A program made the position numbers and the translations under genes. Shown piece after piece: positions 63 through 27,314 of a stretch of 32,000 bases of DNA (its first letter is position 1; each line of letters starts with the position of its first letter). Source of the stretch: Telmatobacter bradus (lineage in GTDB: Bacteria > Acidobacteriota > Terriglobia > Terriglobales > Acidobacteriaceae); NCBI RefSeq assembly GCF_048629425.1, contig NZ_CP184532.1, positions 413,398 to 445,397 of the forward strand, given 5' to 3'. Below the pieces are notes generated by a model. It saw only the letters and a program-made list of their open reading frames with translations, was not told the origin of the DNA and ran no database searches.

Positions 63-1259
63 GGAACCTCTGAACAACCCCCTCCAAAACAACCCACAAC
101 AACGGATGCCCAGAAATAAATACGATCAGGCGTATCCAGCGTTGAAAAGTTGCTAAAAGTCGGTTGTCGTGCGGTGTCTATCGCGTGTCCTGAGGCCATT
201 TTCGGCCTCCAGACACACTACGCCCCCAGCGGGGCCTGATTCGGAATTAGCCGCTTGCGGTGTTGGTAGAGATTCACCAGCGCGAAGGCCGTCAGCAGCC
301 ACTCGTGATTCTTCTTGATGCCACGGTAGCGCACCTTGGTGTAATGAAATACGCGCTTCAAGATACGGAAAGGCCACTCCACCCGAGCGCGAACCTTGGA
401 CTTGGTGCGGTTCTTGCGCTTCTCTTCTTCGTCTACTTTGCCCTTGCTCTTCTTCACCCGCCGGTTGGTCATGTCCTGCGCCTGAGGAGCGGCCTCGTGG
501 ATCGCCTCGGTTTGCCCCTGATAACCGGCATCGCCCCAAACCTTTTTCTCATTGCCGTGTAGCAAGTCGGGCAGCATGTGTTTGTCGTGCACTGAGGCAG
601 CCGACGTGCACACCGAATGCACCACATTTTCCTTGCTATCAACGCCGATATGCGCCTTGGCCCCGAAGTAATACTGACCGCCCTTCTTGGTCTGGTGCAT
701 CTCCGGGTCGCGCTCCTTCTTCTCGTTCTTGGTCGAAGAAGGTGCAGAGATGATCGTGGCATCGACGATGGTGCCAGTCGAAATACGGATGCCCTGGCTG
801 GCCAGATACAGGTTCACCGTATCCAGAATCTTGCCGTTCAACTCGTGCTTTTCCAGTAGGTGGCGGAAGTTGAGGATGGTGGTTTCGTCTGGCGCGGCCG
901 CGCGACCGAGGTCGATTCCGGCAAAGCCGCGCAGCACCGGAGACTCGTAAAGAGCATCCTCTGCGCCAGGGTCCGACAAGTTGAACCAATCCTGGAGAAA
1001 GTAGATTCGCAGCATGATTCCGAGGCCAACGGGCTGACGTCCCTTGCCTGCCTTTGGGTAGAAAGGAGCAATCAATGCTTCAAGTTCTGACCAAGGAACG
1101 ATGGACTCCATCGAGGTGAGAAACGCCTCGCGGCGGCTCGTTCGTCCATACTTCTCAAAACTCGGCTGGCTGGCAAATGTTATCTGGCGCATCGCGTTCG
1201 CTATCCCTCTTCCATTTTATGAAAGAAGGGTGCGGATTTGCGACTTGTTCAGAGGTTCC
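63..1259 (-). mobile_element. IS5-family insertion sequence, complete (about 1197 bp)
   Basis: Perfect 15-bp terminal inverted repeats GGAACCTCTGAACAA (63-77) and TTGTTCAGAGGTTCC (1245-1259), flanked by TTAG (59-62 and 1260-1263), matching the 4-bp YTAR target duplication of IS5 elements; contains one DDE transposase ORF. Confidence 0.92.
218..1192 (-). CDS. IS5-family DDE transposase
   Basis: 324-aa ORF with TIVDATIISAPSSTKN, YYFGAKAHIGVD, VWGDAGYQG and NRTKSKVRARVEWPFRILKRVF motifs of IS5/IS1182-type transposases. Confidence 0.93.
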   Translation of the reverse strand: MRQITFASQPSFEKYGRTSRREAFLTSMESIVPWSELEALIAPFYPKAGKGRQPVGLGIMLRIYFLQDWFNLSDPGAEDALYESPVLRGFAGIDLGRAAAPDETTILNFRHLLEKHELNGKILDTVNLYLASQGIRISTGTIVDATIISAPSSTKNEKKERDPEMHQTKKGGQYYFGAKAHIGVDSKENVVHSVCTSAASVHDKHMLPDLLHGNEKKVWGDAGYQGQTEAIHEAAPQAQDMTNRRVKKSKGKVDEEEKRKNRTKSKVRARVEWPFRILKRVFHYTKVRYRGIKKNHEWLLTAFALVNLYQHRKRLIPNQAPLGA

Positions 1260-1428
1260 TTAGGTTGACGCTTGACTACTTGGTAGGTTCCGATCCTGGC
1301 ACTACCCAAGGACCGAAAATGTCGGCTTGCCTCTCTCGATGAACTACACTGATCAGATAAGGATTTGAGCCCAAGATTCACGGACATATCACGATTGGGT
1401 GGGCTCTTCTGATCTAACGGGAGCCGTC

Positions 1429-3162
1429 ATGTCGTTGATGCCAACCGATGAGTTCTTGAGGCTGTTCCCAATTCGATCTTCATCTCTGGCTTGGTTTCTT
1501 GGTGCTGGGGCCTCAGCGTCGGCGCGGCTTCCTACGGCCGGGGACCTGGTTTGGCGATTCAAACGTGCCCTCTATTGCACGAGCAAGAAGGTAGACCCGA
1601 AAACGTGTCAAGACCTCGGCAATGAGGTGGTACGGGAACGCTTGCAACACTTTTTTGACTCTGCTGGAAGATATCCAGCCATCAATTCGCCGGAAGAGTA
1701 CGCCACCTATTTTGAGCTGACTTATCCCGACCCCGCCGACAGACGACGTTTCCTCGAAAACATGTTGCATGGAGCCACGCCAGCCTACGGTCATCAAATT
1801 TTAGCGGCGCTGATGAAAACCGGCAATGTGCGGTTGGTATGGACGACAAACTTTGATCGGCTAGTCGAGGATGCTGCAGCGGCAGCCTTCGGATCAACGT
1901 CGGCGCTCACAGTATCCACGATTGACTCCAGCAGCATCGCGTTGCGCGCCCTGAACGAAGGACGCTGGCCTGTACTCGGGAAGTTACATGGTGACTTCCA
2001 ATCGGTAGCGCTCAAGAACACAACGGAAGAGCTGAAGACACAAGAGAGCGATCTGCGCGCGACTCTCGTTGAATCATGCAAGCGTTTTGGCTTAATTGTC
2101 GCAGGATACAGTGGGCGTGATGAAAGTGTAATGAACGCTCTGGAAGAGGCGGTTTTGCAGCCAAACGCTTTTCCCGCCGGACTGTTTTGGGCCACCAAAA
2201 CAGGATGGTCTGTGTATCACAGAGTAGAGACGTTGCTCGCCCGCGCAGTGAGCGCAGGTATACAGGCGTCTCTAATCGAGGTTGAGACGTTTGACGAGTT
2301 AATGGGAGATCTCGCGCAGCAAATTGAGAGTCTGCCTGTAGATCTACTGGGAACGCTCAACAAGATGCGGTCCAAAATATCGAACGTGCCGCTACCAGGG
2401 CCTGGCTCGAACTGGCCGGTCGTTCGCATGAACGCAATTCCGGTGCTCAGCTGGCCCAAGGAGTGCCGCAAATTCGACGCTAAGATCGGCGGCGCGCGGG
2501 ACGTAAGGCTGCTTCTGGAAACCACTACAGCTAATTTGGTTGCCGTTCGCTCGCAGCACGGCATTCTGGCATTTGGTGCCGATAGTGAAATCCAACGTGT
2601 CTTCGCCGACCACAATCCAGAGAAGTTGAACGTACACTCTATAGAGGTTAGGCGTTTGTGGAAAGAAACTAACGAACTGAACCTACTCCGCAGCGCACTG
2701 GTCAATGGCTTGGTGGAAGGCGCACCGTTTGTGGTGTGGTCTGGGCGAGGCGTGCATGAAATTCGCCCGGATGATTCTGCCACCATGGCACCGCGCCTCG
2801 CGCCTCTCCGAGAAAAGCTGAAAACCATTGCCGGGGTGATTCCTGGAACCAACGTGAGGTGGTCCGAGGCGGTCGCAATCCGGTTGGAGTATCGCTTGGG
2901 ACGACTTTGGATGCTGCTCGAACCGACAGTATGGTTTGGCAATGCCGCGTCGGACGAGGAGAGGTATGAGTGTGGCGAATTCGTCCGCGAGCGACAGGCG
3001 CGGCGGTATAACCGACTGGCCGATACCATTCTGAACGCCTGGCTCCAAGTACTCCTTCCGGGAACCGGCGATGCGGAAGTCCGTGCATTTACGGATGAAC
3101 CAGGAATGGAAGCCCGATTCACGTTTTCTCGACGTACAGCGTTTGCGAGGCGGAGTTCATGA
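1429..3162 (+). CDS. SIR2-APAZ protein (putative NAD(P)ase effector of a short pAgo system)
   Basis: SIR2-like motifs FLGAGASASARLPTAGDLV, VWTTNFDRLVEDA, VLGKLHGD, LIVAGYSGRDESV; C-terminal half without SIR2 similarity fits APAZ; located directly upstream of and overlapping a short PIWI gene. Track ORF starts at GTG 1399; ATG 1429 has upstream GGGAG. Confidence 0.88.
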   Translation: MSLMPTDEFLRLFPIRSSSLAWFLGAGASASARLPTAGDLVWRFKRALYCTSKKVDPKTCQDLGNEVVRERLQHFFDSAGRYPAINSPEEYATYFELTYPDPADRRRFLENMLHGATPAYGHQILAALMKTGNVRLVWTTNFDRLVEDAAAAAFGSTSALTVSTIDSSSIALRALNEGRWPVLGKLHGDFQSVALKNTTEELKTQESDLRATLVESCKRFGLIVAGYSGRDESVMNALEEAVLQPNAFPAGLFWATKTGWSVYHRVETLLARAVSAGIQASLIEVETFDELMGDLAQQIESLPVDLLGTLNKMRSKISNVPLPGPGSNWPVVRMNAIPVLSWPKECRKFDAKIGGARDVRLLLETTTANLVAVRSQHGILAFGADSEIQRVFADHNPEKLNVHSIEVRRLWKETNELNLLRSALVNGLVEGAPFVVWSGRGVHEIRPDDSATMAPRLAPLREKLKTIAGVIPGTNVRWSEAVAIRLEYRLGRLWMLLEPTVWFGNAASDEERYECGEFVRERQARRYNRLADTILNAWLQVLLPGTGDAEVRAFTDEPGMEARFTFSRRTAFARRSS

Positions 3163-4580
3163 AACCAGATATTGCAGCCATCTCCGGATACGGCAAGTCC
3201 AGTGAACCGCCCCTGCTATTCAGTCCTGAACGACAGGCCGACCGCGACATTCATCCTCTTCGGGGTTTAATGCAGTATGGACCCTACAGCAAGAACTTTA
3301 TCAACAAAGTCTTCGACCCCATCCGGGTTGCTACGATCTTTCCGGCTGGAATGAATACGCGGGTTCGCTCACTTTTCGATGAGTTCGAGCGCTCTCATAC
3401 TCCGCAGGAGCGCAAGGATTACCTGATTCCGTTTCCCGGCTTCCGGGCCGTATTCGGGGTGAGCCTCAAGCCAGCAGCAGGAGGATTGCACGCTGTCATC
3501 CCAGAAGATGCGGACGAAACCATCCACAACAGTCCGCATCCGCATATTGCACTCGCCCAACTCCTCACCGATGCCATGACCCGGCTAGATACCCGGAGGG
3601 GAGAATACGATGTGCTGCTCATCATGCTCCCTGATCGTTGGGAGTATGCCTTCGAAGGAGAAGACGATGGTTTTGACCTGCACGACTATATCAAGGCAAT
3701 CAATGCATCGCGCGGAACCCCGACACAATTTATCAACGAGAGCGGAGCACTAGACTACCGATGCCGTGCGAGCGTTATGTGGCGTCTAAGCATTGCTCTT
3801 TACTGCAAAGCAGGAGGTGTGCCGTGGAAGTTAGCGGACACCGATCCGACAGCAGCATTCATTGGCGTCAGCTATGCTATGAAGGTCGATGCCGTCGGCA
3901 AGGCTACGTTTGTGACCTGCTGCAGTCAGGTCTTCGATTCGGATGGGGCCGGGCTGGAGTTTGTAGCGCATGAAACCCGCGATGTGCACCAAGACGGAGA
4001 GAATCCATTTTTAAGCCGAAGCGAGATGCGGAGGATAATGGCGCGGAGCCTCAGCCTCTATCAGAGGAGACATGGCGGCCAGTCTCCGCAGAAGATCAGC
4101 GTTCATAAAACTACCGAGTTCAAAAAAGACGAGGTTGAAGGCTGCTTCGACGCCTTCGATTCCATTTCTGGCGTCGATCTCTATCAGATTAAACAGAAGG
4201 TTCCGTGGCATGGCTTTCTCTATGAGAATTCGTCATCCGCTGCGGCCTATCCTTGTGAACGCGGGATTTTCATTCCCATCGACGAACGGGAGGTTCTGGT
4301 TTGGACGCAGGGCGATGTACCCCAAGCGTCCACCAGTAAGCATTTCTACAAAGAAGGAAAAGGCATTCCTCACCCAATCGCGCTACGGCGATTTGCAGGT
4401 CACGGGAGCTGGGATGCGCCGGTGCAATCAATCCTGGGACTGACCAAGATGAATTGGAATAACGATCAACTGTACGACCGTTTACCAATCACTCTGCAAT
4501 ATGCAAGTAAGCTCGCTGGAACAATGAAGTCCATGCCGATCATATCGTCGCGACCGTATGAATTTCGATTGTTTATTTGA
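3159..4580 (+). CDS. Short prokaryotic Argonaute (MID-PIWI, catalytically inactive type)
   Basis: 473 aa; PIWI-like layout with ADTDPTAAFIGVSYAM, FVTCCSQVFDSDGAGLEFV, RRHGGQSPQKISVHKTTEFKKDEVEG, YPCERGIFIPIDEREVLVWTQGD, HPIALRRFAGHGSWDAPVQSILGLTKMNWNNDQLYDRLPITLQYASKLA. Expected catalytic Asp replaced (IGVSYA). Overlaps the SIR2-APAZ stop by ATGA. Confidence 0.87.
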   Translation: MKPDIAAISGYGKSSEPPLLFSPERQADRDIHPLRGLMQYGPYSKNFINKVFDPIRVATIFPAGMNTRVRSLFDEFERSHTPQERKDYLIPFPGFRAVFGVSLKPAAGGLHAVIPEDADETIHNSPHPHIALAQLLTDAMTRLDTRRGEYDVLLIMLPDRWEYAFEGEDDGFDLHDYIKAINASRGTPTQFINESGALDYRCRASVMWRLSIALYCKAGGVPWKLADTDPTAAFIGVSYAMKVDAVGKATFVTCCSQVFDSDGAGLEFVAHETRDVHQDGENPFLSRSEMRRIMARSLSLYQRRHGGQSPQKISVHKTTEFKKDEVEGCFDAFDSISGVDLYQIKQKVPWHGFLYENSSSAAAYPCERGIFIPIDEREVLVWTQGDVPQASTSKHFYKEGKGIPHPIALRRFAGHGSWDAPVQSILGLTKMNWNNDQLYDRLPITLQYASKLAGTMKSMPIISSRPYEFRLFI

Positions 4581-4722
4581 GCCTAATCCTTCGCACCTTG
4601 ATTAGAAACGAAAAACGCCGATGTAGCTGGAATGGATATTGGGCTTACGCACAATCGTAATGTCACCCGTTGGGAACTCCATCCGGTTTTGAGGGACGGC
4701 GTTTTCCGGAGATTCAACCACC

Positions 4723-5937
4723 TCATACTTTTTGTCGATTCCCGATAGATTCGATGACATATTTTAGTTGGTTGTCCTTGTCTGCTCGTGCTTTTTGCCA
4801 TTCGAAACCAACCTGTTCGTCCGGCTCGATAGGCGTGCCTTCAAGTACCGTGCCATTCCATGTGTAGTAGGCGCCAGTAGGCAATGCCAGCCGAAATCCC
4901 TGGCCTACCTTCACCGATGTTGCGGACAGGAGCTTGCCAGCGGTCTTTTCACCGACGATCCTGGCCAGATTGTTCTCCCGCGCGAACGCTACAATCATCT
5001 CGGCTGCGCTTGCAGTATGGCGGTTCACGAGGATGGTCACCCTTCCGTGGAACTCCTTGCGGCCCAGCCCTTCAGTCTCAAGGACGATGGGCGTCTTGGC
5101 CAGCATTGCCGGCGCAAATTTCAAAGCAAGCGGCCAGAGGGACTTCTTGGAAGTGGGAATAGCATTAAACCGCCGAAATCGCGGCTTCTCCGAATCCAGA
5201 TTGGGCTTGACACGCTTTTTATCGAGGGCGAACCCTACGGGAATCCTGTCGGGCGTGAGCAGGCTCATGATACGAAGGGCTCCGATCCCTCCTCCGGTAT
5301 TCCCGCGGAGGTCGATGATGAGGCTGTCGATCTTTCCCAACCCCTCAACGGCACACGAGATTTCGTTGGCCACTTCGACGCCGACCTGCCCAGGGAACAT
5401 CGCGACCTTCAGGTAGCCAAGGCCGTCTTCGAGATGGCGCGCCTCAACCAGCGTCGGCTCGACAAAGTGGAGTTTCTTTCCCTTGGGCCGCGCCACATCG
5501 ACCGCTACAACGCGCCGCTGATCGTCGCTGCCAACAATCTCCAGACTGGTCTGCTTGCCCATCGCAAAGACAGGATGCTCCGGCGGGGTAATCTCGCGAC
5601 CATCCACACTGAGAAGAATATCCCCTGACTTGATTCCGGCATTTGATGCTGCGCCGCCTGAGTGAACATCCTGAAATATCCAACGCTTGCCGAAAGGCGT
5701 CTCGTCGGCAAGGTAGGTTGCGCTCAGAGCGGCGCGGCTGGAAGCCCTGCGGGCGCTGCCGTGAAAGAAGCCCAGATGCGAGGTATGCAACTCTGCCAAC
5801 AAATCAGTCATGGCCTGCTCAAAGCCATCTGGCGTGCTGGCCGCTTCAATCAATGGCCGGTGGTGATCGACAGCGGCGCGCCAATCGCCATTCAACTTTT
5901 CAGGTTTATAGAAACGCTTGTCCAGGGCAGCCAGCAC
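4723..5937 (-). CDS. S41-family C-terminal processing peptidase with PDZ domain (5' end probably altered)
   Basis: PDZ-like NAGIKSGDILLSVDGREI; LIIDLRGNTGGGIGALRIMSLL; TILVNRHTASAAEMIVAFARENNLARIVGEKTAGKLL carries the S41 Ser motif. Confidence 0.8.
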   Translation of the reverse strand: MLAALDKRFYKPEKLNGDWRAAVDHHRPLIEAASTPDGFEQAMTDLLAELHTSHLGFFHGSARRASSRAALSATYLADETPFGKRWIFQDVHSGGAASNAGIKSGDILLSVDGREITPPEHPVFAMGKQTSLEIVGSDDQRRVVAVDVARPKGKKLHFVEPTLVEARHLEDGLGYLKVAMFPGQVGVEVANEISCAVEGLGKIDSLIIDLRGNTGGGIGALRIMSLLTPDRIPVGFALDKKRVKPNLDSEKPRFRRFNAIPTSKKSLWPLALKFAPAMLAKTPIVLETEGLGRKEFHGRVTILVNRHTASAAEMIVAFARENNLARIVGEKTAGKLLSATSVKVGQGFRLALPTGAYYTWNGTVLEGTPIEPDEQVGFEWQKARADKDNQLKYVIESIGNRQKV

Positions 5938-7571
5938 ATTGTCGAGAATGGCGCGGCGGTCGCGTTGGGAAATGCAAGCGCGTAGGAGTGAGGGTTGTCC
6001 AGAACATACACCACCAAAAGCTCAGAGGGGCGGAGTTCGCGCTGGAGTTGGCCAAGATCAACCGGCTCTGGCGCTTTGCCTCCTGCGGTCGAATCTGTAT
6101 CGATCTGTAGTTCCGTATCATAGATGGAGTCAAGGATGTGCCTTCTGGCTGTCGAATCGTCGGTATTGAGCAAGTCGATGTTCAACTTCGTCAATCGCTG
6201 CTCGGCGGGAGTCAGTTCGTGTGGCGTCACCACCTCATGGTGCGCCAAGGACTGCGCCTCGACTCGCCCGCGGGCACGCTCGATCACGCGAAACGCGTCC
6301 GCTGTCCTGCCCTGATCGCATAGGAACTCGAAATATCCTGAGTAAACCTTACTGAGATCGGCAAGCAGTTGGCGTTCGACGGTTGGCGTCGGCACTCTAC
6401 TGAGCAGTGCGTCGAGCATGTCGGCGCTCTTCTCATACAGAATGATTGAGGACTTGCTGTCCCCAAGGCGAACCATGATTTCTGCCTTGATTGCAAGATC
6501 ACGTGGGACAAAGTACAGCTCATCGGGGATTTGTTCGTTGGATGCAATGGCCTCGTTGATTGCAATCAATGCCGGTTGCAACGCTCCTTGATGCAGGTAT
6601 GCCGCTGCAAGTGAGCCGTCAACCTGCGTCAAGCCGCGCCAGTACGAAAGTTGTTTGGCGTACTGAACGGCCTGACCGTAATCGGTCACTGCTTGATCCC
6701 ATTGGCCCATTCTCTCGTAGACGCCAGCTCTGGTCTGGTAAAGCTCATAGAGATGCCCGGCAAGGTGGTAGCCGCTCACTCGCCGCATCTCTTCACTGGC
6801 CAGCGCCAGAGCTTCCTTGTTCTCCCCAAGGCCACTGAGGGCCTCGACCTTGGCCGTAATGGCAATCGTCGGATACGCCACGCCGCGGGTCTTCTTGGCA
6901 ACCTTGATGGCTTCATCGAGCGGTCCAAGCGCCTCCTTGTACTTGCGCATTTCCACCAGGCCAGCGCCGTACATACTGGCGTATCGAATGTGAGCTCCTG
7001 GGTCGGCGGTCTTCGCAACGAACCATGCCTTAACCACTTTCTTCTTCGCTGTAGCAATGTCGCCGAGCAAGAATGCGGCAATTCCTTGCTCGCCCATTGC
7101 CCTGGACGCCAGCAGGTAATGGTGTCGGCGGATTGCCAGTGCCTCCACATCAGCCCATGTCTTCCGTGCCATCCCGGCGTCATAATTCACTTCGAGCATT
7201 CCGAGGACGGTCAGAACGCGAAGCCTGGTCTCTGGCTCCTGCGCCTCTGGCAGCGCCAGATCATGCGTCAACAACGCGATCTGCGCGGGGACGCTCGTTG
7301 ACGACTCGCTGTGTGCCGGCATTTCGCTGACCCGCGCGTAGAGCGCCTGCGAGAGCTGGCGTCTCTGGGTGAAGTGACTTTCCGCTTGTCGGTAAAGAGG
7401 TTCGGCCTCAATCCAGCTATTGAGCCACGACATCTCGTCGGCTCGCGCAACGATCGCCTCGGGAGAGACAAGATTCCTCCAGTGGAGGACTTCGCATCCG
7501 ACCACACCCAACAGGGCGACCAGCAGCAAACCGGCAGCAATGCGAAAGGAGGGGAGGAAAGCGATTCGCAT
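5892..7571 (-). CDS. TPR-repeat protein with truncated CHAT-domain start, lipoprotein-like N-terminus
   Basis: Repeated TPR units; VIERARGRVEAQSLAHHE linker typical upstream of CHAT; ...LQRELRPSELLVVYVLDNPHSYALAF then ends abruptly. N-terminus MRIAFLPSFRIAAGLLLVALLGVVGCE. Confidence 0.7.
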   Translation of the reverse strand: MRIAFLPSFRIAAGLLLVALLGVVGCEVLHWRNLVSPEAIVARADEMSWLNSWIEAEPLYRQAESHFTQRRQLSQALYARVSEMPAHSESSTSVPAQIALLTHDLALPEAQEPETRLRVLTVLGMLEVNYDAGMARKTWADVEALAIRRHHYLLASRAMGEQGIAAFLLGDIATAKKKVVKAWFVAKTADPGAHIRYASMYGAGLVEMRKYKEALGPLDEAIKVAKKTRGVAYPTIAITAKVEALSGLGENKEALALASEEMRRVSGYHLAGHLYELYQTRAGVYERMGQWDQAVTDYGQAVQYAKQLSYWRGLTQVDGSLAAAYLHQGALQPALIAINEAIASNEQIPDELYFVPRDLAIKAEIMVRLGDSKSSIILYEKSADMLDALLSRVPTPTVERQLLADLSKVYSGYFEFLCDQGRTADAFRVIERARGRVEAQSLAHHEVVTPHELTPAEQRLTKLNIDLLNTDDSTARRHILDSIYDTELQIDTDSTAGGKAPEPVDLGQLQRELRPSELLVVYVLDNPHSYALAFPNATAAPFSTMCWLPWTSVSINLKS

Positions 7572-7784
7572 AACGCCTCGTTCACTTTGGACGTTCAGTT
7601 TGCCAGAAAGTGAGAGGCAGGACAAGACTGACTGACACACCCTTGTTGCGCGTGACAATCAGACGGCCGCGTTAAAATCCGTAGGTGTTGAGGATCGTGT
7701 TGGAAAAAGTTTGGCGGAAATGAGAATGATGGCTGAGTCTGAATTGAGCACCACACAGTTGGGCAAGGTATGGTTGGGGAAACT

Positions 7785-8366
7785 TTAGAGACCGTTCTGC
7801 TCTGTTGCCGCGGGGGCCATGCCGCGGTCCTCGCGGATCGCATCAACCCACAACTGCATGGTCAGATCCTCCCTCTTGGGAACACCGAGTTGCCAGCGTA
7901 ACTCAGTTGTGTAACGCTCACGAAGAATGTCGAGGTCAAAGGGAATGCTTCGCGCCAGGAAGCGAACGTCGTCGCGGTCTTTCTGGCTGTTTCTTTCGAG
8001 TTTCGATAGGGCCAGGTCGTAGGGGTCGAGCGCCATCAGATGGAGGTTGCGGTAGGCACCGGGGAACATCTCGGCAAGACGATCCTCGTAGCTCTCCGGG
8101 ATGGCGGCGACCGCCACGCGGTCAAGATAGATGTGGTACCTCTGATGCAGCGGCCCGCCGCGAATGCCAAGTTCCATTATGGTCTCTGCGGCGCTGCGTG
8201 GCGCAAGCTCGATGACATCGACATCCGCTGTCGGCCGCTCCAGTCCATAGAGCAATGTGACGACGAAACCGCCAATGCAGTCGAGACGCACGGTCGTATC
8301 GACTGCCTCATCCAACTCCCTGAAGAAGGAGTTCCACGGTTCCGGCGGCCGGTTAGAGGACGACAT
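7785..8366 (-). CDS. DUF6036-type (AbiEii-like) nucleotidyltransferase-fold protein, putative toxin partner
   Basis: 193 aa; LDCIGGFVVTLLYGLERPTADVDVIEL and DPYDLALSKLERNSQKDRDDVRFLA motifs. Confidence 0.7.
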   Translation of the reverse strand: MSSSNRPPEPWNSFFRELDEAVDTTVRLDCIGGFVVTLLYGLERPTADVDVIELAPRSAAETIMELGIRGGPLHQRYHIYLDRVAVAAIPESYEDRLAEMFPGAYRNLHLMALDPYDLALSKLERNSQKDRDDVRFLARSIPFDLDILRERYTTELRWQLGVPKREDLTMQLWVDAIREDRGMAPAATEQNGL

Positions 8367-9039
8367 GATCGAGTTGCTCTACGGTAAGGTCTGTCAGCAG
8401 ATTCCAGTGTCCGGCCGACTTCGGTCGATGCTCGCGCAACCAAGCCCGCTCGGCGCGTGTCATAGATTCTCTGCATAGAGTATCTTCTTTCACCAGGCGG
8501 GAGGGCTCCAGCTTAGCGACGTGGTTGGCCAGTTCCTCTTCCAACTGGGAGCTTCCACTTCTCGCGGCGGCCTGCCGCGCCAGCTCGACTACAAACCCCA
8601 GCCGGTTCTGGCGATCCCGCAGCTTTGCATTCGCGGTCAGCCAATCCCAGTTCAGATTCGGATAGGCCATAGGCAGCCATGCCAGCGCCTCTGTGACTCG
8701 CGAATCCAGATCGTCCGAGTCTAGAGCCTCCATCAGAACTTCCACCGGATTCAATCGGGCTGAACCGCGCAGATAGGCAAAGCCCGGATAGCCCAGACTT
8801 CCCAGTATCGACTGGAAGAAGCCGGCGTCGCGCGCGCGTTTCTGGTATTCCGTGAGCGGGAGCGCCGTGGCCGGAACCTCGAAGACTTCTACGAATTTTG
8901 AGGCAAGTTCTGAGGAGACAGCCCGCTCACCCCGCTCGACCATCGACAGATAGGCCTGGGTCACGCCGAGCCGAGCGGCGGCTTGGGCTTGCGTCCAGGC
9001 GGACGCCTTACGGGCGTTTTTGAGTTCGTCGCCTGTCAT
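8353..9039 (-). CDS. XRE-family HTH regulator, putative antitoxin
   Basis: MTGDELKNARKASAWTQAQAAARLGVTQAYLSMVERGER is a canonical Xre/Cro HTH; 3' end overlaps the downstream nucleotidyltransferase gene by 14 nt. Confidence 0.85.
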   Translation of the reverse strand: MTGDELKNARKASAWTQAQAAARLGVTQAYLSMVERGERAVSSELASKFVEVFEVPATALPLTEYQKRARDAGFFQSILGSLGYPGFAYLRGSARLNPVEVLMEALDSDDLDSRVTEALAWLPMAYPNLNWDWLTANAKLRDRQNRLGFVVELARQAAARSGSSQLEEELANHVAKLEPSRLVKEDTLCRESMTRAERAWLREHRPKSAGHWNLLTDLTVEQLDHVVL

Positions 9040-9044
9040 GTATT

Positions 9045-9069
9045 GAATATAACATATACTGTTATATTC
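9045..9069. promoter_or_regulatory. Palindromic operator-like site upstream of the XRE gene
   Basis: Perfect 9-bp inverted repeat GAATATAAC (9045-9053) - 7 nt - GTTATATTC (9061-9069), AT-rich, 5 nt upstream of the putative ATG. Confidence 0.7.
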
Positions 9070-9135
9070 GTGCGATAATTCTGAACTCATGGCAAGGTCA
9101 CTGTTTGCATCTGTTTGTAAATACAGTAGATATAG

Positions 9136-10660
9136 ATGAATGGTGCACCAGCTGAAGATCATACTCTGTTCGATCCCTTTTCCTCGGGCGGCATTGTCTT
9201 TACTACGATTCAGAAATTCATCCCTGCCGACGATGATCGTGATCCCAAACTGACGGATCGGCGTAACGTCATTGTGATTGCTGACGAAGCCCACCGCAGT
9301 CAGTATGACTTTATTGATGGTTTTGCGCGGCATATGCGCGATGCGATTCCCGGCGCAACGTTCATCGGGTTTACAGGTACACCGATTGAGAAGACGGATG
9401 CCAGTACAACGGCAGTTTTTGGCGATACCATCTCGGTCTATGACATTCAGCGAGCCGTAGAGGATGGGGCCACTGTCCCGATCTATTACGAGAATCGCCT
9501 CGTAAAGCTCAACCTTGACGAAGCCCTGAAGCCGCAACTTGATTCCAGCTTTGAAGAAGCAACTGAGGATGAGGAAGTAGGCAAGCGGGAGCGGCTGAAA
9601 TCGCGCTGGGCAGCGGTTGAGGCCATTGTCGGAACCGAAACGCGCATCAAGGCTGTTGCCAAGGACATAGTAGACCACTTTGAGGCTCGACAGCAGGGCA
9701 TGGTGGGCAAGGGCATGATCGTCTGCATGAGCCGCCGCATCTGCGTTGAGCTTTACAAGGAACTGACGGCGCTGCGCCCCAAGTGGCACTCGGACGATGA
9801 CAAGGAAGGCGCAATCAAGATTGTAATGACCGGCAATGCGACCGATCCCGTTGATTGGCAATCGCATATTCGCAACAAACCCCGCCGTGAGGCCATAGCG
9901 GAGCGATTCAAGAATCCCAATGACCCGTTGGAACTGGTCATTGTGCGGGATATGTGGCTGACGGGCTTCGATGTGCCTTGCCTGCATACGATGTACGTTG
10001 ACAAGTATATGCACGCGCATGGGCTGATGCAGGCGCGGGTGAATCGCGTCTTCCGGGACAAGCGCGGCGGGTTAGTGGTGGATTATCTGGGGATCGCGCA
10101 GGAGCTAAAGAAGGCGCTCTCAACCTACACGGAAGGCGGCGGAGAAGGTGATCTCACGCGGCCTCAGCACGAAGCCGTGGAGCTGATGCTCCGACGGCAT
10201 CAGGAGTGCTGCGCTTTGTTCAAGGGCTTCGATTGGTCAGGATGGGCCGATGCCAAGCCAAGCGACAAGTTGGGGATGCTGCCCTGGGCACAAGAACTCA
10301 TTCTGGCGCAGCCGCAAGGAAAAGAAAATCTCACCCGATCAGTTGCAGAACTTACTCACGCTTTTGCGCTCGCGGTGCCGCACGATGAGGCTTTGCGGAT
10401 TCGGGACGATGTAGGTTTCTTTCAGGCGGTGCGGGCGGTGCTGGCAAAGTCGCCGACGCAGCAGGTTGGCCGTGTCGATTCTGAATTGGCCATTCGACAG
10501 ATTGTATCGAATGCCATCGTGACCGAGGATGTGGTCGATATTTTCGCTGCTGCTGGTTTGAAGAAGCCTGACATCTCGATTCTGTCAGACGAATTTCTGG
10601 CGGAGATTCAGGCCATGCCTCAGAGAAATCTGGCAGTTGAACTTCTGCAAAAGCTGCTTA
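9136..10660 (+). pseudogene. hsdR: hsdR (type I restriction endonuclease, R subunit), middle part; 5'-truncated and interrupted
   Basis: [80 protein letters not shown]; no Walker A/nuclease portion upstream. Confidence 0.9.
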
Positions 10661-10678
10661 TGATTTCGCTACTCTGAA

Positions 10679-10710
10679 TTGGCCCCATTTGATGCTCTGA
10701 GTTGGCCCCA
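10679..10710. repeat. IS21 left-end multiple terminal repeats
   Basis: TTGGCCCCA at 10679-10687 and 10702-10710, spacing 23 nt. Confidence 0.85.
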
Positions 10711-10789
10711 CCTGGGGCAGAGCCCGTTATCTTGTTTCGGGGTAATATTCCCCGGAAACGAGGACGGCTTGGCCACAAGGAGGAGCAAG

Positions 10790-12370
10790 GTGGAGCTATA
10801 CGAGCAGATCCGGCGGGAGTACGAGCATGGCGCCGGGACGATCCGCGCGGTAGCGCGGAAGTTGGGAGTACATCGACGGGAGGTGCGCCAAGCCTTGGCC
10901 AGCGCGCTGCCTCCAGAGCGGAAGAAGCCGCAGCGGGAGCGGCCCAAGCTGGGACCGGCAGTTCCGTTCATCGACGCGATTCTCGAAGCGGACCGCAAGG
11001 CGCCGCGCAAGCAGCGGCATACCGCGCATCGCATTTGGATGCGGCTGCGGAAAGAGATGCCGGAGATTGTCGTCGGCGAGTCCACGGTGCGCGAGTATGT
11101 GTGCGAGCGCAGGCAGGCGATGGGGCTTCTGAAGCATCAGGTCTTCATCGCGCAGTCCTATCACTTTGGCGACGAAGCGCAGGTGGATTGGTACGAGATC
11201 CAGGCCGAGTTCGATGGCCAGCCGCGCAAGGTCTACATCTTCTGCATGCGCTCGATGGCCTCGGGAGCGGCCTTTCACCGGGCCTATCCGCACGCCACGC
11301 AACAGGCATTTCTAGAAGCCCACGAGTTGGCGTTTCACTGGTTTGGTGGGGTCTTTCATACTCTCAGGTTCGACAACCTGACCTCGGCGGTGAAGAAGAT
11401 TCTGCGCGGCTATCAGCGGGAAGAGACCACGCGCTTCATCGCTTTCCGCTCGCACTGGGGCTTTCAGGCAGAGTTCTGCACGCCGGGCGAGGGCCACGAA
11501 AAGGGTGGCGTCGAAAACGAAAACGGGCAGTACCGGCGCAACTACATGGTCCCCGTGCCGAAGGTGCGCAACCTGGAAGAGTTGAACCAGCTACTGGCCA
11601 CGGGAGCCGTAGAGGAGCAGGCGCGTCTGATCACTGGTCGCAGCCTGTCGATCGGCGCATTGATGCTGGCCGAGCGCGAGCATCTGCTTCCGCTGGCCAC
11701 CGAAGGCTTCGATCTGGCCGCGCTGCACTTTCCTCATGTGAACCAGAGCGGCTGCGTCAAGGTGTTGACCAACTTCTATTCGACGCCGTTGCCGGTGGGA
11801 ACCAGGGCGGCCGCCAAGGTCTACTCGGCTTACGTGGAGATCTGGCACGATGGGCATTGCGTGGCGCGGCATGAACGCTGCTACGAGCGCCATCAACAGG
11901 TGCTGGAACTGGACCATTATCTGGATGTGTTCGAGAGGAAGCCGGGGGCGCTGGCCGGATCCACGGCTCTGGAGCAGTGCCGGACACAGGGTCGCTGGCC
12001 TGCCAGTTATGATCGCTTCTGGTCCATCGTCAGCGAACGGGAAGACCGTCAGGCCGGAACGCGGACGATGATCGAGGTTCTGTTGCTCAGCCGCACCTGT
12101 GGCGCTGGCCGCGTTCGCCAGGCGGTGGAAGAAGCGCTGGCGATGGGCGCTTCCAGCCTGAGCGCGATCCGCTATCTGCTCAGCGTGGACTGCCGGCCAG
12201 CAACGGCAGAAGCGCTGGCTGTGGAGGTCGGCGAATTGCACCGCTATGACCGTCCGCAACCCAGCATGGAAGCCTATGAACAACTGCGGCCGAACTGGAC
12301 TGAGCCTCCACAGACAGACTCAAGTTCCCGGATTGCAGACTGGCCGGTGGCGACGGAGGTGGTCCAGTGA
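10790..12370 (+). CDS. istA: IS21-family transposase IstA
   Basis: N-terminal HTH ([21 protein letters not shown]), [54 protein letters not shown] 10790 preceded by AGGAGG. Confidence 0.93.
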
Positions 12371-13137
12371 GCACACCCCAGCCGATTGAACAGGCCGCCA
12401 TTCAGCAGTATGCCCGTCAACTCTATCTGACCACCGTGGCCGACCAGTTTGCCCGTCTGGCCGAAGACGCCGTCCGCAAAAAGCAATCGCATTTGAGTTA
12501 TCTGGAGGCGCTGCTCGGCGCCGAGGTCGAGGAACGTGAGCGCCGAGCCGTGCTCCGGCGCATCAAGGAGGCCCACTTCCCGGCCGTCAAGACGCTTGAG
12601 GAGTTCGATTTTCAAGCGGCACCGCACATCTCCGCGGCGCTGATAAAAAAGCTCAGCGAGGGCGAGTATCTCGAACGCAAGGAACCAGTGATTTTGTTAG
12701 GGGAAACGGGCACGGGTAAAAGTCACTTGGCCGTCGCTCTGGCCGTCGCCGCTTGCCGCCAACGCAAGCGGGTGCGCTTCACCACAGCGGCGGAGCTGGT
12801 GACGGAGATGATCGAAGCCCAGAGCCAACTGCAACTGACGCGGATGCGCAACCGCTGGATGCGCTACGACCTTGTCGTCCTTGACGAACTTGGCTACGTC
12901 GTCATGCCGGACGCCGCGGCGGAGTTGCTCTTCCAGGTGATCGCCGGCCGCGCCGAGCAGGCGGCTCTGATCGTAACAACGAACTTGCCATTTTCCGAGT
13001 GGCCCACCAAGATCCCCAACGCACGGCTGTGCAAGGCGATGCTCGATCGCCTGACGGATCGCGCTCACATCATCGAGACCGGAACAGAGAGCTACCGGTT
13101 CCGCAGAACCATGGCTAGAAAAGCAGGTAGGGCATGA
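12367..13137 (+). CDS. istB: IS21-family helper ATPase IstB
   Basis: [89 protein letters not shown]; ATGA-type overlap with istA. Confidence 0.95.
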
Positions 13138-14189: not shown

Positions 14190-15227
14190 AGTGGGGTAGC
14201 TGCCTTAGTACAGTAGCCCCTACAGGTTGTGTTTTGCGGCTATTTGGCTGGCTCTTGAAGGGCGAAACCTCGTGGGCTGTGTTACGGCGGCATTTTCCAG
14301 CAAGCGATAGAAGAGCATTCCCCGTCGGCGCGATTTCCTGCGGTTGAAGCGAAAGGCAAACTCGTCCAGGTATGCATCCAGATGCGTGGCGGTAACCGAA
14401 CCTTGATGTGTTCCCAGCAGCCAGCGTTTCAGCCGCGATGCAATCTTATGGACACCCGGCATGACCACATGCGCCGGATCGCCGCTACTGGAGATACTGA
14501 CGGCATGGTGCTTGTGGCCTTCTTTTGCCAACCCCGCATAGCCCTTCCAGCCATCGGTGCACACCTGTGATCCCGGCTCAATCGCGAACTGCACAAAGGG
14601 AATCAGACTACGCGAGGAGGCATCCGCAACCCGCTTCAGCCGTACCCGCCCGAAGCCTATCGGGGAAAGCACTTCGATCGCGATGGCCACGATAAACTTA
14701 CGCTCCGCGCCGCGTCCGCGTGTGCCCTGCTCGATTCCCCCCACGTAGGTTTCGTCCACCTCGACTGTGCCTTGGAGTCGCTCGCGGCCAGGACGCACCA
14801 TGGCTGTCCGCAACTTGCGCAGCATTGTCCAGGCCGTCTGATAGCTGCCCAGGCCGAGAAGTCGCTGTAGACCCAACGCGCTGACTCCATATTTTTGGTT
14901 GGTCATGAACCAGATAGCGGTAAACCAGTCGGCCAGCGGTACGCGGCTGCGGTCGAAGATCGTTCCTGCCGTTACAGACACTTTGCGAGCACAGCCAGCA
15001 CAGGTCCAGCGCCCATCGGACAAGCGCCAGCCCTTCTCACTGGAGCATTTTGGACAATGAAAACCGTTTGGCCAACGGAGCCGCTCCAGGTAGCCAATGC
15101 AGGCTTGTTCATCGGGGAACCAAGCGCGAAACTGTTGCCATGTGCCCGGATAATCAAGCCCCAAATCGGGTTTTGCCTCGGATACCACTACATATAGATC
15201 CTACTGTACTCAGGCAGCTACCCCACT
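14190..15227 (-). mobile_element. IS1595-family insertion sequence (1038 bp)
   Basis: Near-perfect ~27-bp terminal IRs AGTGGGGTAGCTGCCTtAGTACAGTAG / CTACTGTACTcAGGCAGCTACCCCACT; 8-bp TSD TGATCGTA at 14182-14189 and 15228-15235. Confidence 0.93.
14220..15188 (-). CDS. IS1595-family (ISXO2-like) transposase
   Basis: N-terminal zinc-binding CPKCSSEKGW...CAGC; GTVEVDETYVGG; VCTDGWKGYAGL; TATHLDAYLDEFAFRFNRRKSR. Confidence 0.93.
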   Translation of the reverse strand: MVSEAKPDLGLDYPGTWQQFRAWFPDEQACIGYLERLRWPNGFHCPKCSSEKGWRLSDGRWTCAGCARKVSVTAGTIFDRSRVPLADWFTAIWFMTNQKYGVSALGLQRLLGLGSYQTAWTMLRKLRTAMVRPGRERLQGTVEVDETYVGGIEQGTRGRGAERKFIVAIAIEVLSPIGFGRVRLKRVADASSRSLIPFVQFAIEPGSQVCTDGWKGYAGLAKEGHKHHAVSISSSGDPAHVVMPGVHKIASRLKRWLLGTHQGSVTATHLDAYLDEFAFRFNRRKSRRRGMLFYRLLENAAVTQPTRFRPSRASQIAAKHNL

Positions 15228-15245
15228 TGATCGTATACATGTCAA

Positions 15246-15842
15246 TCAGGCTACCCGCAGATGGACGCCTCGTTTTACCTGTGTACCTGGGACTTCCTCA
15301 AAGCGGCTCACCGCTTCCTTGATCGCATCGCTGTTCGGTCTGTCGTCGCGGATGCAGCTTGCCAATGCTTTAGAGGTGTCTTCTGAAAGGGATGCAACGA
15401 CCAACTGCCAGAGGCGTCCTGGAATGCGAAGTTCCAACTCACGGAAAGTCGTCGGAACCTGAGTCGCGTCCGTTATCTCGACTGAATCCTGACTGTTCTT
15501 CTGTAGCCGCAGCGTGAACTCCTTTCCTTCGATCTTCCTGAGCCCGCGTGCCGCCAAGAAGTAGAGCACCATATTCCGAGTACTGACGCCCTTTGCTTCG
15601 GCGGTGCGCGCGCGTTTCTGGAAGTGTTCTGCCTGCTGGCGGCAGTATTTCAGCCGGTTGTCCATCAGGGTAAGGAACCGCCCGATCCTGTCGACCTTTT
15701 GGCTTTCTGCCTCGCAGAACTGCCGAAATCGTTCGAGCAACTCGGAAGAGGCCGTACCGTTCTCCTCCACCTCTTCCTCGATCTGATCGAGCATCGAGTC
15801 GAGTTCGCGGTCGATCTCAAAGAGTGTGCTGCCATCGGTCAT
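15246..15842 (-). CDS. Siphovirus Gp157-like protein
   Basis: TLFEIDRELDSMLDQIEEEVEENG...DNRLKYCRQQAEHFQKRARTAEAKGVSTRNMVLYFLAARGLRKIEGKEFTLRLQKN layout of the Gp157 family. Confidence 0.7.
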   Translation of the reverse strand: MTDGSTLFEIDRELDSMLDQIEEEVEENGTASSELLERFRQFCEAESQKVDRIGRFLTLMDNRLKYCRQQAEHFQKRARTAEAKGVSTRNMVLYFLAARGLRKIEGKEFTLRLQKNSQDSVEITDATQVPTTFRELELRIPGRLWQLVVASLSEDTSKALASCIRDDRPNSDAIKEAVSRFEEVPGTQVKRGVHLRVA

Positions 15843-15886
15843 TGAAGTCCTCCATAGAGTTTGTATCTGGCAGGGTGATAGCGTGG

Positions 15887-16345
15887 CTACGCAGCCATGG
15901 GCAAACTGTTTGCTTGAGTGCGCGCTGCGCGGTAGGCTAGTGCGTCGGCGCGTGATTGGATCGGATGGCCGCCGTGCCCTCTGATCCATCGCCAGCGAAT
16001 TGTTCGCAGTTCGTTAAGTCGGAGCAACTCGCGCCACAGATCCTGGTGCTGCAATTCAAAGCCACGGCTGTTGCGCCAGCCAAACTGCTGCCAACGAAAA
16101 ACCAGGAACCGCATTCCGTCGATCAGCAACTCCGAGTCAGAGCGCAGTTCGATTCGCGCGCCGGTCGGTGTTAGGCGCAGGGCCTCAACCGCAGCGCGTA
16201 GTTCCATTTCGGAGACGGTTGACCGCGGAACCGATCCGGCGATCTCCTGCCGCTTTGTCCCGTGGATCACGATAGCTGCCCAGCCGGCTGGACCGGGGTT
16301 GCCGATGGCCGAGCCATCGGTGAAAATGAAAAACTGCTTGTTCAT
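15887..16345 (-). CDS. rnhA: Ribonuclease HI-like
   Basis: FIFTDGSAIGNPGPAGWAAI, SEMELRAAVEAL, LRSDSELLIDGM, GHGGHPIQSRADALA retain the RNase H acidic residues. Confidence 0.85.
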   Translation of the reverse strand: MNKQFFIFTDGSAIGNPGPAGWAAIVIHGTKRQEIAGSVPRSTVSEMELRAAVEALRLTPTGARIELRSDSELLIDGMRFLVFRWQQFGWRNSRGFELQHQDLWRELLRLNELRTIRWRWIRGHGGHPIQSRADALAYRAARTQANSLPMAA

Positions 16346-16424
16346 GGGGTGCTCCGGGCGGGTCGCTTCTCCGCAACGGATGAATGGGACGCTGGTTCCT
16401 CTTGTCACTGAGCGATAATATTTC

Positions 16425-17216
16425 ATGCAGATTTCTCCACATTGTTATGCCGTGACCGGGCTCGGATACTTCTCTCCGTGGTGCGTCAATGCCGGCTTTG
16501 TGGCAGGCGATACCACCACGCTCATCATCGACACCGGCACAAACTGGATGGCGGCGCAGACGATTCACGGCTACGCTTGCGCGGTTCGTCCCGGCAATCG
16601 AATCCTGGCTGTGAACACCGAGAAGCACTTCGATCATGTCGGCGGCAATGGCTTCTTTCGCGACCTCGGAATAGACATCTACGGACACGCCGAGAATCAG
16701 CGAACCGCCGAGGAGTTTGCGGCCGAGATTGCCGTGTTCAACGATTCCACTCTCGACCGCCAGCGCCGCGAGCGCCAGGAAGCCCATGCCTTCTTCCATC
16801 GCACGGAGTTGACCGCGCCGAACAAGAAGCTCGGCGAAGGAACCGTCTTCGATCTGGGCGGCGTAACTGCGGAGGTGCTCTTCACGCCGGGACACACGCG
16901 CACCAACCTCTCCATCTGGATTCCTCAGGAGCGCGTACTTTATACGGGCGATTGCGTGGTGAGCCTGTACCGGCCGAATCTAGAGGCGGGGAGCAGCGAA
17001 GACTGGCGTCTTTGGCTTGCCTCGCTCGACCGGATCGAAGGCCTGCGCCCGGCGTTTGTGCTCGGCGGGCACGGCAATCTACTGAGCGCGGCCGAGCTGA
17101 CCACGGCCATCGAGATCATCCGCGGCGATCTCCGCGAAGCCATTGCGCAGGGTCTGTCGCCCCATCAGCAATTTTGCAAACAGAATCCAGATGGAACAAA
17201 GGCCGACTACTTGTAG
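16425..17216 (+). CDS. MBL-fold metallo-hydrolase with atypical first metal motif
   Basis: LIIDTGTN, NTEKHFDHVGGNG, VLFTPGHTRTNLSIWIPQERVLYTGDCVV, VLGGHGNLL. Confidence 0.85.
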   Translation: MQISPHCYAVTGLGYFSPWCVNAGFVAGDTTTLIIDTGTNWMAAQTIHGYACAVRPGNRILAVNTEKHFDHVGGNGFFRDLGIDIYGHAENQRTAEEFAAEIAVFNDSTLDRQRRERQEAHAFFHRTELTAPNKKLGEGTVFDLGGVTAEVLFTPGHTRTNLSIWIPQERVLYTGDCVVSLYRPNLEAGSSEDWRLWLASLDRIEGLRPAFVLGGHGNLLSAAELTTAIEIIRGDLREAIAQGLSPHQQFCKQNPDGTKADYL

Positions 17217-17236: not shown

Positions 17237-18445
17237 CTACGCCGCTTGCATGGGAACAACGCTGCCGAAGGGCGCATGACGGCCGCCGGTTGAGGCCCAG
17301 AGCACGGGATAGTATGGAGCTTCGTCGGGAAATGTCCCGTAGAGGTCGGTCAGAAAGACCAGCGTCTGCGGTTGAATTCCATGCTCCCTCAGCCAGTCGA
17401 AGCACGGACCGAAGTCAGTTCCTCCGCCGCCAACGGGATTGAGATGAACGGTCTCCCCGGCTTGATAGGTCTCCACTTTGTGTACCTCAGTGTCGAAGTA
17501 CAGGACGTGAACGCACTGTGGCCGTTGGCCTTCGAGGATCGAGCAAACCTCAGCTTCAAAGAGACGCAACAACCGACCATTCACCGAGCCTGAGCAATCG
17601 ACAGCGATGGCAATCTCTCCGACGCCCTCGCGCACGACTCCAGGCAGATAGAGTCCGTTCCAGATGTGACGGCGGTTGGGCCGCATCCAACTCGAATCGG
17701 CAGGGATAGTATCGGACCAGAGCCGGCGCAACAGTTCACGCCAGTCTACTGTTGCCTCTGCGGCTCCTTCGAGAGTGCGGGCCAGACCCGCAGGAGCCTT
17801 GCCGGCTTGCTTCGAGAGCGTGACTGCTTGGTTGACGGCAACGCTCCACTCTCGCGCCTGCTCTTCAACACTGGGTGTTTCGTCGTTCGGCAGAGGTGCA
17901 TCAAGAACCTGGCCGATGCCGCCCTCCGTCACTGGCGCAGTCGGCTCATCGGTGCTGCCTTGCTTTTCTGGCGTTTCGCCCGCGCCAGTTCCGGCACCGT
18001 TATTTGAGCTGTTCTGGCCGCCAGACTGCGGCTGTGCTTCTGCATCGCGCAGGTTGTAAATCTGTTCAGCACTCATGCCACGGAAGCGGTGATCGACAAG
18101 AACGCCATCCGGCAGACTGAGGCCAGCGTCGAGCAGCAGTGGATTGATGGCGTAATCGCACGCCTCATTCCACCTCTTTGAATCGCGCCCGGAACGCCGC
18201 ACATGATGCTGGAGCGCGGGGTGCATGACCTCGTGGGCCAACACCCCGGCCAGCGTTGCCGAGTTCAGTGTATCGACGAACTCAGGGTTGTAGTAGAGCG
18301 ACACGCCATCCGTCGCCATGGTTGGAATCGACCGCTGTTCGCGCCCCTTCAAGCGAAACAAGAGCGAGCCAAAGAATGGATGATCCAACAGAAGCGTAGT
18401 CCGCGCCTTCTGAATACGAATGGATGCCGGTGTCTCATGTCTCAT
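17237..18445 (-). CDS. DUF2201-type putative metallopeptidase with VWA-like domain
   Basis: LAGVLAHEVMHPALQHH (HExxH) N-terminally; IAIAVDCSGSVNGRLLRLF (MIDAS-like DxSxS) and GGGGTDFGPCFDWL C-terminally. Confidence 0.82.
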   Translation of the reverse strand: MRHETPASIRIQKARTTLLLDHPFFGSLLFRLKGREQRSIPTMATDGVSLYYNPEFVDTLNSATLAGVLAHEVMHPALQHHVRRSGRDSKRWNEACDYAINPLLLDAGLSLPDGVLVDHRFRGMSAEQIYNLRDAEAQPQSGGQNSSNNGAGTGAGETPEKQGSTDEPTAPVTEGGIGQVLDAPLPNDETPSVEEQAREWSVAVNQAVTLSKQAGKAPAGLARTLEGAAEATVDWRELLRRLWSDTIPADSSWMRPNRRHIWNGLYLPGVVREGVGEIAIAVDCSGSVNGRLLRLFEAEVCSILEGQRPQCVHVLYFDTEVHKVETYQAGETVHLNPVGGGGTDFGPCFDWLREHGIQPQTLVFLTDLYGTFPDEAPYYPVLWASTGGRHAPFGSVVPMQAA

Positions 18446-26915: not shown

Positions 26916-26929
26916 GATTACTTCTCCTC

Positions 26930-27265: not shown

Positions 27266-27314
27266 GGAGAGCCTCCGATACTCTCCAACATACATCCTCC
27301 ACGGGAATGACGCA

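Follow-up and report, generated by a model that had tools for sequence, protein, structure and literature searches.

A probable SPARSA-B operon encoding a SIR2-APAZ protein and a short Argonaute in the acidobacterium Telmatobacter bradus

Operon structure and gene starts

We analysed a 32,000-nt stretch of the genome of Telmatobacter bradus (Acidobacteriaceae), hereafter called the window, which corresponds to positions 413,398 to 445,397 of the 5.0-Mb contig NZ_CP184532.1. All coordinates are those of the window unless another locus is named. Near the start of the window are two genes on the same strand, which encode a protein with a SIR2 and an APAZ domain (SIR2-APAZ) and a short prokaryotic Argonaute (pAgo):

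1429-3162, plus strand: SIR2-APAZ gene, 577 amino acids (aa) from ATG; RefSeq WP_420238356.1, 'SIR2 family protein'
3159-4580, plus strand: short pAgo gene (MID-PIWI), 473 aa; RefSeq WP_420238357.1, 'argonaute/piwi family protein'
1419-1423, plus strand: Shine-Dalgarno-like GGGAG, 5 nt ahead of the ATG at 1429, by direct reading
3159-3162, plus strand: ATGA overlap that holds the stop of the first gene and the start of the second, by direct reading

Both predicted proteins are exact matches to the RefSeq entries of T. bradus. The two genes make up an operon with translational coupling; an earlier note on this DNA had described the ATGA overlap, and the list of open reading frames (ORFs) agrees with the direct reading of the junction. 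An in-frame GTG at 1399 would extend the SIR2-APAZ protein by 10 residues to 587 aa, but the ATG at 1429 was favoured because of its 5-nt spacing from GGGAG and because the 577-aa product is found verbatim in RefSeq.

The SIR2 motifs pointed out in the same note were each located where it had placed them, namely GAGAS at residue 25 (nt 1501-1515), TTNFD at residue 139 (nt 1843-1857), LHGD at residue 186 (nt 1984-1995) and GYSGRDES at residue 226 (nt 2104-2127), as was the IGVSYA motif at residue 235 of the pAgo. The note had furthermore taken the operon to be intact. Full-length alignments to the Geobacter sulfurreducens (Gs) chains covered residues 3-573 of 577 and 5-472 of 473, with no frameshift or internal stop in either gene, which supports the view that both coding sequences are intact.

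The SIR2-APAZ protein

The two domains of the first protein were delimited by alignment to its Geobacter counterpart:

1429-2358, plus strand: SIR2 (NADase) domain, approximately residues 1-310; Pfam SIR2_2, limits from GsSir2 1-309 (PMC10781750)
2422-3159, plus strand: APAZ domain (PADLOC 'PNTD1-PNTD2'), approximately residues 332-577, aligned to the GsSir2 APAZ domain 331-587 (PMC10781750)

The best profile match was the PADLOC class I model Aga_SIR2-PNTD1-PNTD2 (E = 9.7e-183), in which residues 15-576 aligned to positions 3-557 of 558. In a search of the PDB the protein matched GsSir2 (8jkz_A/8in8_B) over residues 3-573 with 33.9% identity (E = 1.3e-91), and Pfam assigned SIR2_2 at 8e-13. 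There were weak PADLOC matches to ThsA, and the NCBIfam search returned sub-threshold sirtuin matches only.

An AlphaFold model of the protein had a mean predicted local distance difference test (pLDDT) score of 85 and a predicted template modelling (pTM) score of 0.57, and its top fold match was again 8jkz_A (E = 1e-48). Over the whole chain, the template modelling (TM) score to 8jkz_A was 0.49 at a root mean square deviation (rmsd) of 24 A, whereas the APAZ half of the model aligned to the APAZ-only chains 8in8_B, 8k87_B and 8y7z_A with a TM score of 0.80 and an rmsd of 3.3-3.6 A. The low global score of the predicted structure arises because the two domains are free to orient independently within a single modelled chain, as reflected in the pTM value, and does not indicate another fold. 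The Pfam, PADLOC, PDB and fold searches are thus in agreement with the proposal that the first protein combines SIR2 with an APAZ-like C-terminal half, and the structure search finds both folds in it.

Residues of known importance in GsSir2/Ago were taken from mutagenesis and structural studies (PMC11452484, PMC10781750, bioRxiv 10.1101/2021.12.14.472599) and mapped onto the T. bradus proteins. Their conservation was counted in family alignments of 41 sequences and in 69-79 homologues derived from genomes. In the HMMER alignment, the catalytic dyad N142 and H186 of GsSir2 corresponded to N141 and H187, and the NAD+ (nicotinamide adenine dinucleotide) binding residues S227, R229 and D230 to S228, R230 and D231. 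The cofactor loop, GAGASASARLPTA (residues 25-37), has kept A26 and A37. All five residues and the loop are invariant in the 41 homologues and kept in 68-69 of the 69 homologues from genome loci.

The short Argonaute: fold and guide pocket

The second protein matched the PADLOC model pAgo_I over residues 8-473 (E = 1.1e-181, profile positions 5-457 of 457) and the GsAgo chain 8in8_C over residues 5-472, with 43.8% identity (E = 9e-115). E values of this order, like those of the SIR2-APAZ protein, are far removed from chance similarity. The Pfam Piwi profile scored 27.6 bits, just short of its gathering cut-off of 28.9 bits, and there was no match in the NCBIfam search. Pfam alone would therefore under-call this protein as a pAgo, but the PADLOC, PDB and fold searches settle its identity. 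The AlphaFold model (pLDDT 81, pTM 0.82) was most similar to the pAgo chains of SPARSA systems, which consist of a short pAgo and SIR2-APAZ, with TM scores of 0.86-0.87, followed by the pAgos of SPARTA and SPARDA at about 0.8. These results bear out the previous description of the protein as a MID-PIWI short pAgo and demonstrate the PIWI fold at the level of the predicted structure. Aligned along the 473 residues of GsAgo, the protein of 473 aa consists of MID and PIWI only, without N or PAZ domains.

The pocket for the guide's 5' end was mapped from GsAgo (PMC11452484, PMC10781750):

3651-3758, plus strand: MID 5'-end pocket with F165, D173, H175, K179, Q190 and Y200

It is completed by N434 (nt 4458-4460) and by the C-terminal carboxylate at I473, where the unextended protein ends; this last residue is Met or Ile across the family. 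The corresponding GsAgo residues are F158 for F165, D164 for D173, H166 for H175, Q181 for Q190 and N434 for N434. F165, H175, K179, Q190, Y200 and N434 were invariant in all 41 homologues and D173 was found in 38 of them, and by residue mapping and family alignment the MID 5'-phosphate pocket has been retained.

A ligand of the 5'-phosphate is given as 'K70' in PMC10781750. We did not rely on this residue, since position 70 of the Gs protein is Glu by alignment; the canonical Lys is K170, which corresponds to K179 here.

The tip of the sensor loop, N282 and F284, is kept relative to GsAgo, as are Y364 and K398. Among the relatives N282 is invariant or nearly so, position 284 is Phe in 68 of 79 and Tyr in the remaining 11, and the other two positions are less conserved (364 is Phe or Tyr, 398 is Lys or Gln).

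The PIWI active site

The catalytic positions were examined by aligning the family profile to the Argonaute of Thermus thermophilus (TtAgo) with hhalign (probability 70%), using a TtAgo sequence that is 100% identical to PDB 3dlb_A. One strand of the PIWI domain is central to this comparison:

3861-3878, plus strand: IGVSYA strand, which carries the first catalytic Asp in active Argonautes, with S238 after the conserved G236

TtAgo D546 aligned to T318 (Ser or Thr in 40 of 41 homologues) and D660 to S450, while E512 fell opposite a gap and has no counterpart. G476 of TtAgo aligned to G236; this flanking Gly anchors the strand, and we therefore took S238 to be the equivalent of D478. The position is Ser in 40 of the 41 homologues and in all 79 relatives. 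In the hhalign output itself D244 was paired with D478. This candidate was rejected, as the pairing depends on an arbitrary gap of 6 residues, the family has no majority residue at the position and GsAgo has no Asp there.

By this alignment the catalytic DEDX tetrad of PIWI is absent, at least two of its four positions being certainly non-acidic, and the predicted protein cannot be an RNase-H-type slicer. The replacement of the expected catalytic Asp in IGVSYA, noticed previously, thus holds for S238, but the loss is wider than had been described and extends to T318 and S450.

These data also bear on the alternative that the Argonaute is a nuclease which cuts invader nucleic acid, with the Sir2 protein as an accessory deacetylase. 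The general names of the Argonaute and sirtuin families would fit such functions, and D244 can be placed opposite D478 once the gap is allowed. Against this, T318 and S450 occupy two catalytic positions, E512 lacks a counterpart and S238 is Ser in every one of the 79 relatives. Moreover, in GsSir2 the channel for a peptide substrate is blocked and NAD+ is hydrolysed to ADP-ribose (PMC11452484; bioRxiv 10.1101/2021.12.14.472599). We consider this alternative to be exceedingly improbable.

Classification and comparison with known systems

Clade S1B, or SPARSA-B, has been defined by a SIR2-APAZ gene that shares an operon with a short pAgo (PMC9097488). For the two T. bradus proteins the top PADLOC models were those for the split form (PDLC02419, PDLC02377), while the models for fused proteins (PDLC02420, PDLC02384) reached about half the score. 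Since the system is of the split form, we placed it with clade S1B, whose split architecture is part of the definition in PMC9097488. The translationally coupled operon of T. bradus is very probably a SPARSA-B system.

The closest characterised system is GsSir2/Ago, the SPARSA of G. sulfurreducens (PDB 8in8, 8jkz, 8jl0, 8k87, 8y7z, 8y80), which has the same gene order, aligns over the full length and encodes proteins of 587 and 473 aa, compared with 577 and 473 aa here. Its chains are the best structural match of both predicted models, and the two systems share the Sir2 dyad, the NAD+-binding residues, the cofactor loop, the MID pocket, the tip of the sensor loop and the inactive PIWI. The same domain set is found in CcSir2/Ago and XavSIR2-APAZ of clade S1B, which are split as in T. 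bradus, and in PgSir2-Ago and JomSIR2-APAZ-Ago of clade S1A, which are fused into a single chain.

More distant comparisons follow the sensor or the effector. SPARTA (TIR-APAZ) and SPARDA (DREN-APAZ) have in common with SPARSA the sensor logic of a short pAgo and APAZ, in which the effector is released on target recognition. Their pAgos align to our pAgo model with TM scores of about 0.8 and the APAZ half matches as well, but the sequences are only 20-23% identical, and a TIR domain or a nuclease takes the place of Sir2 as effector. ThsA (Thoeris) and DSR2, the chains of the latter being among the structural matches of the SIR2-APAZ protein, have the same Sir2 NADase fold and Asn/His pair. They differ in having neither APAZ nor an Argonaute partner, and what triggers them is not guide-target pairing but a signal molecule or the tail tube protein of a phage.

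The type of system, its structure and its mechanism are already published and RefSeq names both proteins at the family level. In the literature library searched, no paper dealt with Telmatobacter in combination with Argonaute.

Gene order, family spread and selection

We examined gene order in the best 80 related genome loci. In 76 of them SIR2-APAZ is the gene immediately preceding the pAgo, and three of the other four have a contig that breaks off less than 340 nt before the pAgo. Individual related loci are referred to below by numbers with the prefix L. The 4-nt overlap recurs in the gene calls of L001-L007, with the same ATGA junction confirmed in L007. The exact pAgo was in addition found on nine metagenome contigs, each with a 577-aa SIR2 gene before the pAgo and the same 4-nt overlap.

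When one genome was scanned for each species, relatives with 47-60% identity were found in at least 569 species from many phyla. At E <= 1e-10 the scored candidates included 2685 homologues of the pAgo and 1985 of SIR2-APAZ, many of them at 45-60% identity. The operon had been thought to be a divergent member of its type. This view cannot be upheld: with PADLOC model scores of about 600 bits and thousands of homologues, it falls in the mainstream of a subclade present in at least 569 species, and it is GsAgo, not the T. bradus pAgo, that is the outlier at several positions among the relatives. The operon is a typical, mainstream member of a published system type and not an unusual one.

A copy of the operon (L007), for which identities of 94% and 82% were recorded, is located between wholly different neighbours, with genes for ArdC-N and ParB_N at one end and for a ResIII helicase and an N6_N4 methylase at the other. 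At the nucleotide level, homology to this locus extends from 1427 to 4561 in the window, a span that nearly coincides with the two ORFs. The dN/dS ratios (nonsynonymous to synonymous substitutions) relative to L007 were 0.058 for the SIR2-APAZ gene and 0.026 for the pAgo gene, showing that both genes are, on these estimates, under purifying selection. Four relatives are borne on plasmids, three of which are conjugative. A mobile defence module would be expected to turn up in unrelated flanks and on conjugative plasmids in this way.

Incomplete versions were also observed. In L009 and L010, two metagenome-assembled genomes (MAGs) of Sulfotelmatobacter and Terracidiphilus with pAgos that are 89% identical, the SIR2-APAZ gene begins only at the GYSGRDES region (stretch 3850-6422 in those loci); its catalytic part, the N-terminal 226 residues, has given way to an unrelated helicase gene on the opposite strand. 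The truncation represents either a decayed copy or a mis-assembly of the MAGs. L009-L011 were compared at the protein level, as default megablast gave no alignment to the window. The L017 pAgo (4956-6392 in that locus), which is 55% identical, had no detectable SIR2-APAZ homologue within 5 kb upstream and no ORF longer than 200 aa in the 1.7 kb ahead of it, and may be an orphan or part of a decayed system.

Proposed mechanism

Judged by homology to the proteins of G. sulfurreducens, SIR2-APAZ and the pAgo would assemble into a heterodimer, with APAZ standing in for the N/PAZ lobe that the Argonaute lacks. The nuclease-inactive MID-PIWI protein would load a small guide RNA with a 5'-phosphate, and pairing of the guide with complementary single-stranded DNA of an invader would move the sensor loop of PIWI and lead to oligomerisation. 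This in turn is predicted to align the Asn/His dyad, N141 and H187, for hydrolysis of NAD+. Loss of NAD+ would then cause cell death or growth arrest and so block the spread of the phage or plasmid (abortive infection). Our data show that the genes are present and intact, what domains they encode, that the residues for catalysis and ligand binding are conserved, that the PIWI tetrad is lost, and that the operon is conserved and under purifying selection. From this analogy we infer that a complex forms, which type of guide it takes, its oligomeric state and NADase activity, as well as a defence phenotype and expression in the strain.

Differences from the Geobacter system

Several observations weigh against a simple transfer of the Geobacter model. 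The T. bradus proteins have only moderate identity (34% and 44%) to the only SPARSA solved structurally, and their host is an acidobacterium. Residues at the tetramer interfaces have changed, in Sir2 from Gs H158 to A159, Y168 to S169, N244 to P245 and R296 to Q297, and in Ago from H104 to G109; none of these Gs residues is conserved across the family either. In the guide pocket, R190 of GsAgo, the reader of guide U2, is replaced by Y200 (nt 3756-3758), a Tyr shared by all 79 relatives, and Y240 and H310, which contact the 2'-OH in GsAgo, correspond to F251 and E320. Since the interface residues and the U2 reader differ, guide preference and the details of assembly need not equal those of the Gs system.

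Taken further, the same substitutions would fit a SPARSA with a guide selection or activation geometry unlike that of Geobacter, that is, with a preference for another 5'-dinucleotide or with other oligomer interfaces. The replacement of R190 by Tyr in the window and in 79 of 79 relatives, F251 and E320, and the lack of conservation of the Gs tetramer interfaces both here and family-wide point in this direction. On the other hand, interface residues usually drift without a change in the mode of assembly, and the sensor loop, the 5'-phosphate pocket and the catalytic site are all conserved. We regard a different geometry as possible but unlikely. It is with the same reservation that we suggest, from the alignments, that the very large, phylum-spanning subclade with Tyr at this position might have another 5' signature in its guides or other oligomer contacts than the Geobacter model.

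The upstream insertion sequence and expression

An insertion sequence (IS) is located upstream of the operon, as context outside the system itself:

63-1259, minus strand: IS5-family insertion sequence with transposase at 218-1192 (minus strand; Pfam DDE_Tnp_1 and DUF772)
63-77 and 1245-1259: 15-nt terminal inverted repeats of the IS5 element, outside which the 4-bp target TTAG is perfectly duplicated (59-62 and 1260-1263)

The element ends 169 nt upstream of the ATG of the SIR2-APAZ gene. When it was removed in silico together with one copy of TTAG, the resulting sequence aligned without gaps to the empty site of L008, a Terracidiphilus MAG, with 80 of 84 positions identical. The element is also absent from L001, a 98.5%-identical contig. 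It is, judging from its termini and these empty sites, a recent simple insertion.

Scans for sigma-70 promoters and terminators around the operon, which used an E. coli-type consensus, yielded counts at or below those expected from shuffled sequences, and no sigma-70-like promoter could be recognised from the end of the IS5 element to the ATG; expression in the strain is accordingly putative. The coding sequences could be intact while the operon is silenced or mis-regulated, the IS5 element having split the native upstream region, and the system would then be dormant and heading for decay. The recent insertion 169 nt ahead of the ATG, its absence from L008 and L001 (94-98.5% identical), the promoter result, the decay of neighbouring genes (a deleted CHAT domain and a truncated HsdR gene, described below) and the lack of the SIR2 half in the close relatives L009 and L010 would all be consistent with such a course. 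Yet both ORFs are of full length and without lesion, 165 nt of native upstream DNA are left with two TTGAC-type hexamers directly past the insertion point, the scan covered the E. coli-type consensus only, and elements of the IS5 family can also activate adjacent genes. The low dN/dS ratios are uninformative on an event as recent as this, in either direction. Silencing of the operon seems rather improbable to us.

Neighbouring genes

The surroundings had been described as an island rich in mobile elements, and in accordance with this the window contains IS5, IS21 and IS1595 elements, phage-type genes and a PRTRC cassette.

Convergent to the pAgo gene, at 4723-7658 on the minus strand, are an ORF of 588 aa with TPR alone and a gene for an S41/PDZ peptidase of 404 aa. 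The same pair is intact in L008 (6571-10547, minus strand, in that locus), where a TPR-CHAT protein of 896 aa and an S41 peptidase of 429 aa are translationally coupled. Compared with L008, some 1.08 kb has been lost from the pair in the window, taking with it the CHAT domain and the N-terminus of the peptidase. L001-L003 and L008 carry the TPR-CHAT/S41 pair along with their SPARSA operon. No PADLOC model matched the pair, which may constitute an uncharacterised protease-based module.

A DUF6036 nucleotidyltransferase gene at 7785-8366 overlaps the end of an ORF for a regulator of the HTH_3/XRE type (stretch 7785-9400, minus strand); the HTH, at residues 328-393 of the ORF 8353-10020, had weak PADLOC matches to HTH_VI and RmrA. 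The two genes may represent a toxin-antitoxin-like pair. The stretch 9136-13137 holds a remnant of the R subunit of a Type I restriction enzyme (HsdR), matching positions 367-873 of 1029 in the REase_I profile, with both ends lost. An IS21 element (IstA 10679-12370, IstB 12367-13137) abuts this remnant and appears to have cut its 3' end.

Further along, the stretch 14220-17216 contains an IS1595-type transposase (14220-15188, minus strand) and phage-type genes for Sipho_Gp157 (15246-15989), RNase H (15887-16426) and a protein with a metallo-beta-lactamase fold (16425-17216, plus strand). On the minus strand at 17237-20393 is a cluster of three genes for a DUF2201 metallopeptidase/VWA-like protein, an unknown protein of 314 aa and an AAA_5 (MoxR-like) ATPase, for which there was no PADLOC match. 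The PRTRC cassette (26379-28968, minus strand) consists of PRTRC_E, a ThiF-family E1-like protein and Prok-E2_D. PRTRC cassettes are typical of plasmids and integrative conjugative elements, and its presence suggests that the whole window is situated in or near an integrated mobile element. No tRNA and no Rfam family was found in the window, and a tRNA-linked island boundary could therefore not be defined.

Implications

The operon adds one more intact SPARSA-B system, this one in a cultured acidobacterium. The T. bradus system could represent the large Tyr200 subclade in comparisons with the Geobacter system, and the 5'-AU rule derived from Geobacter may not generalise to most SPARSA-B systems.

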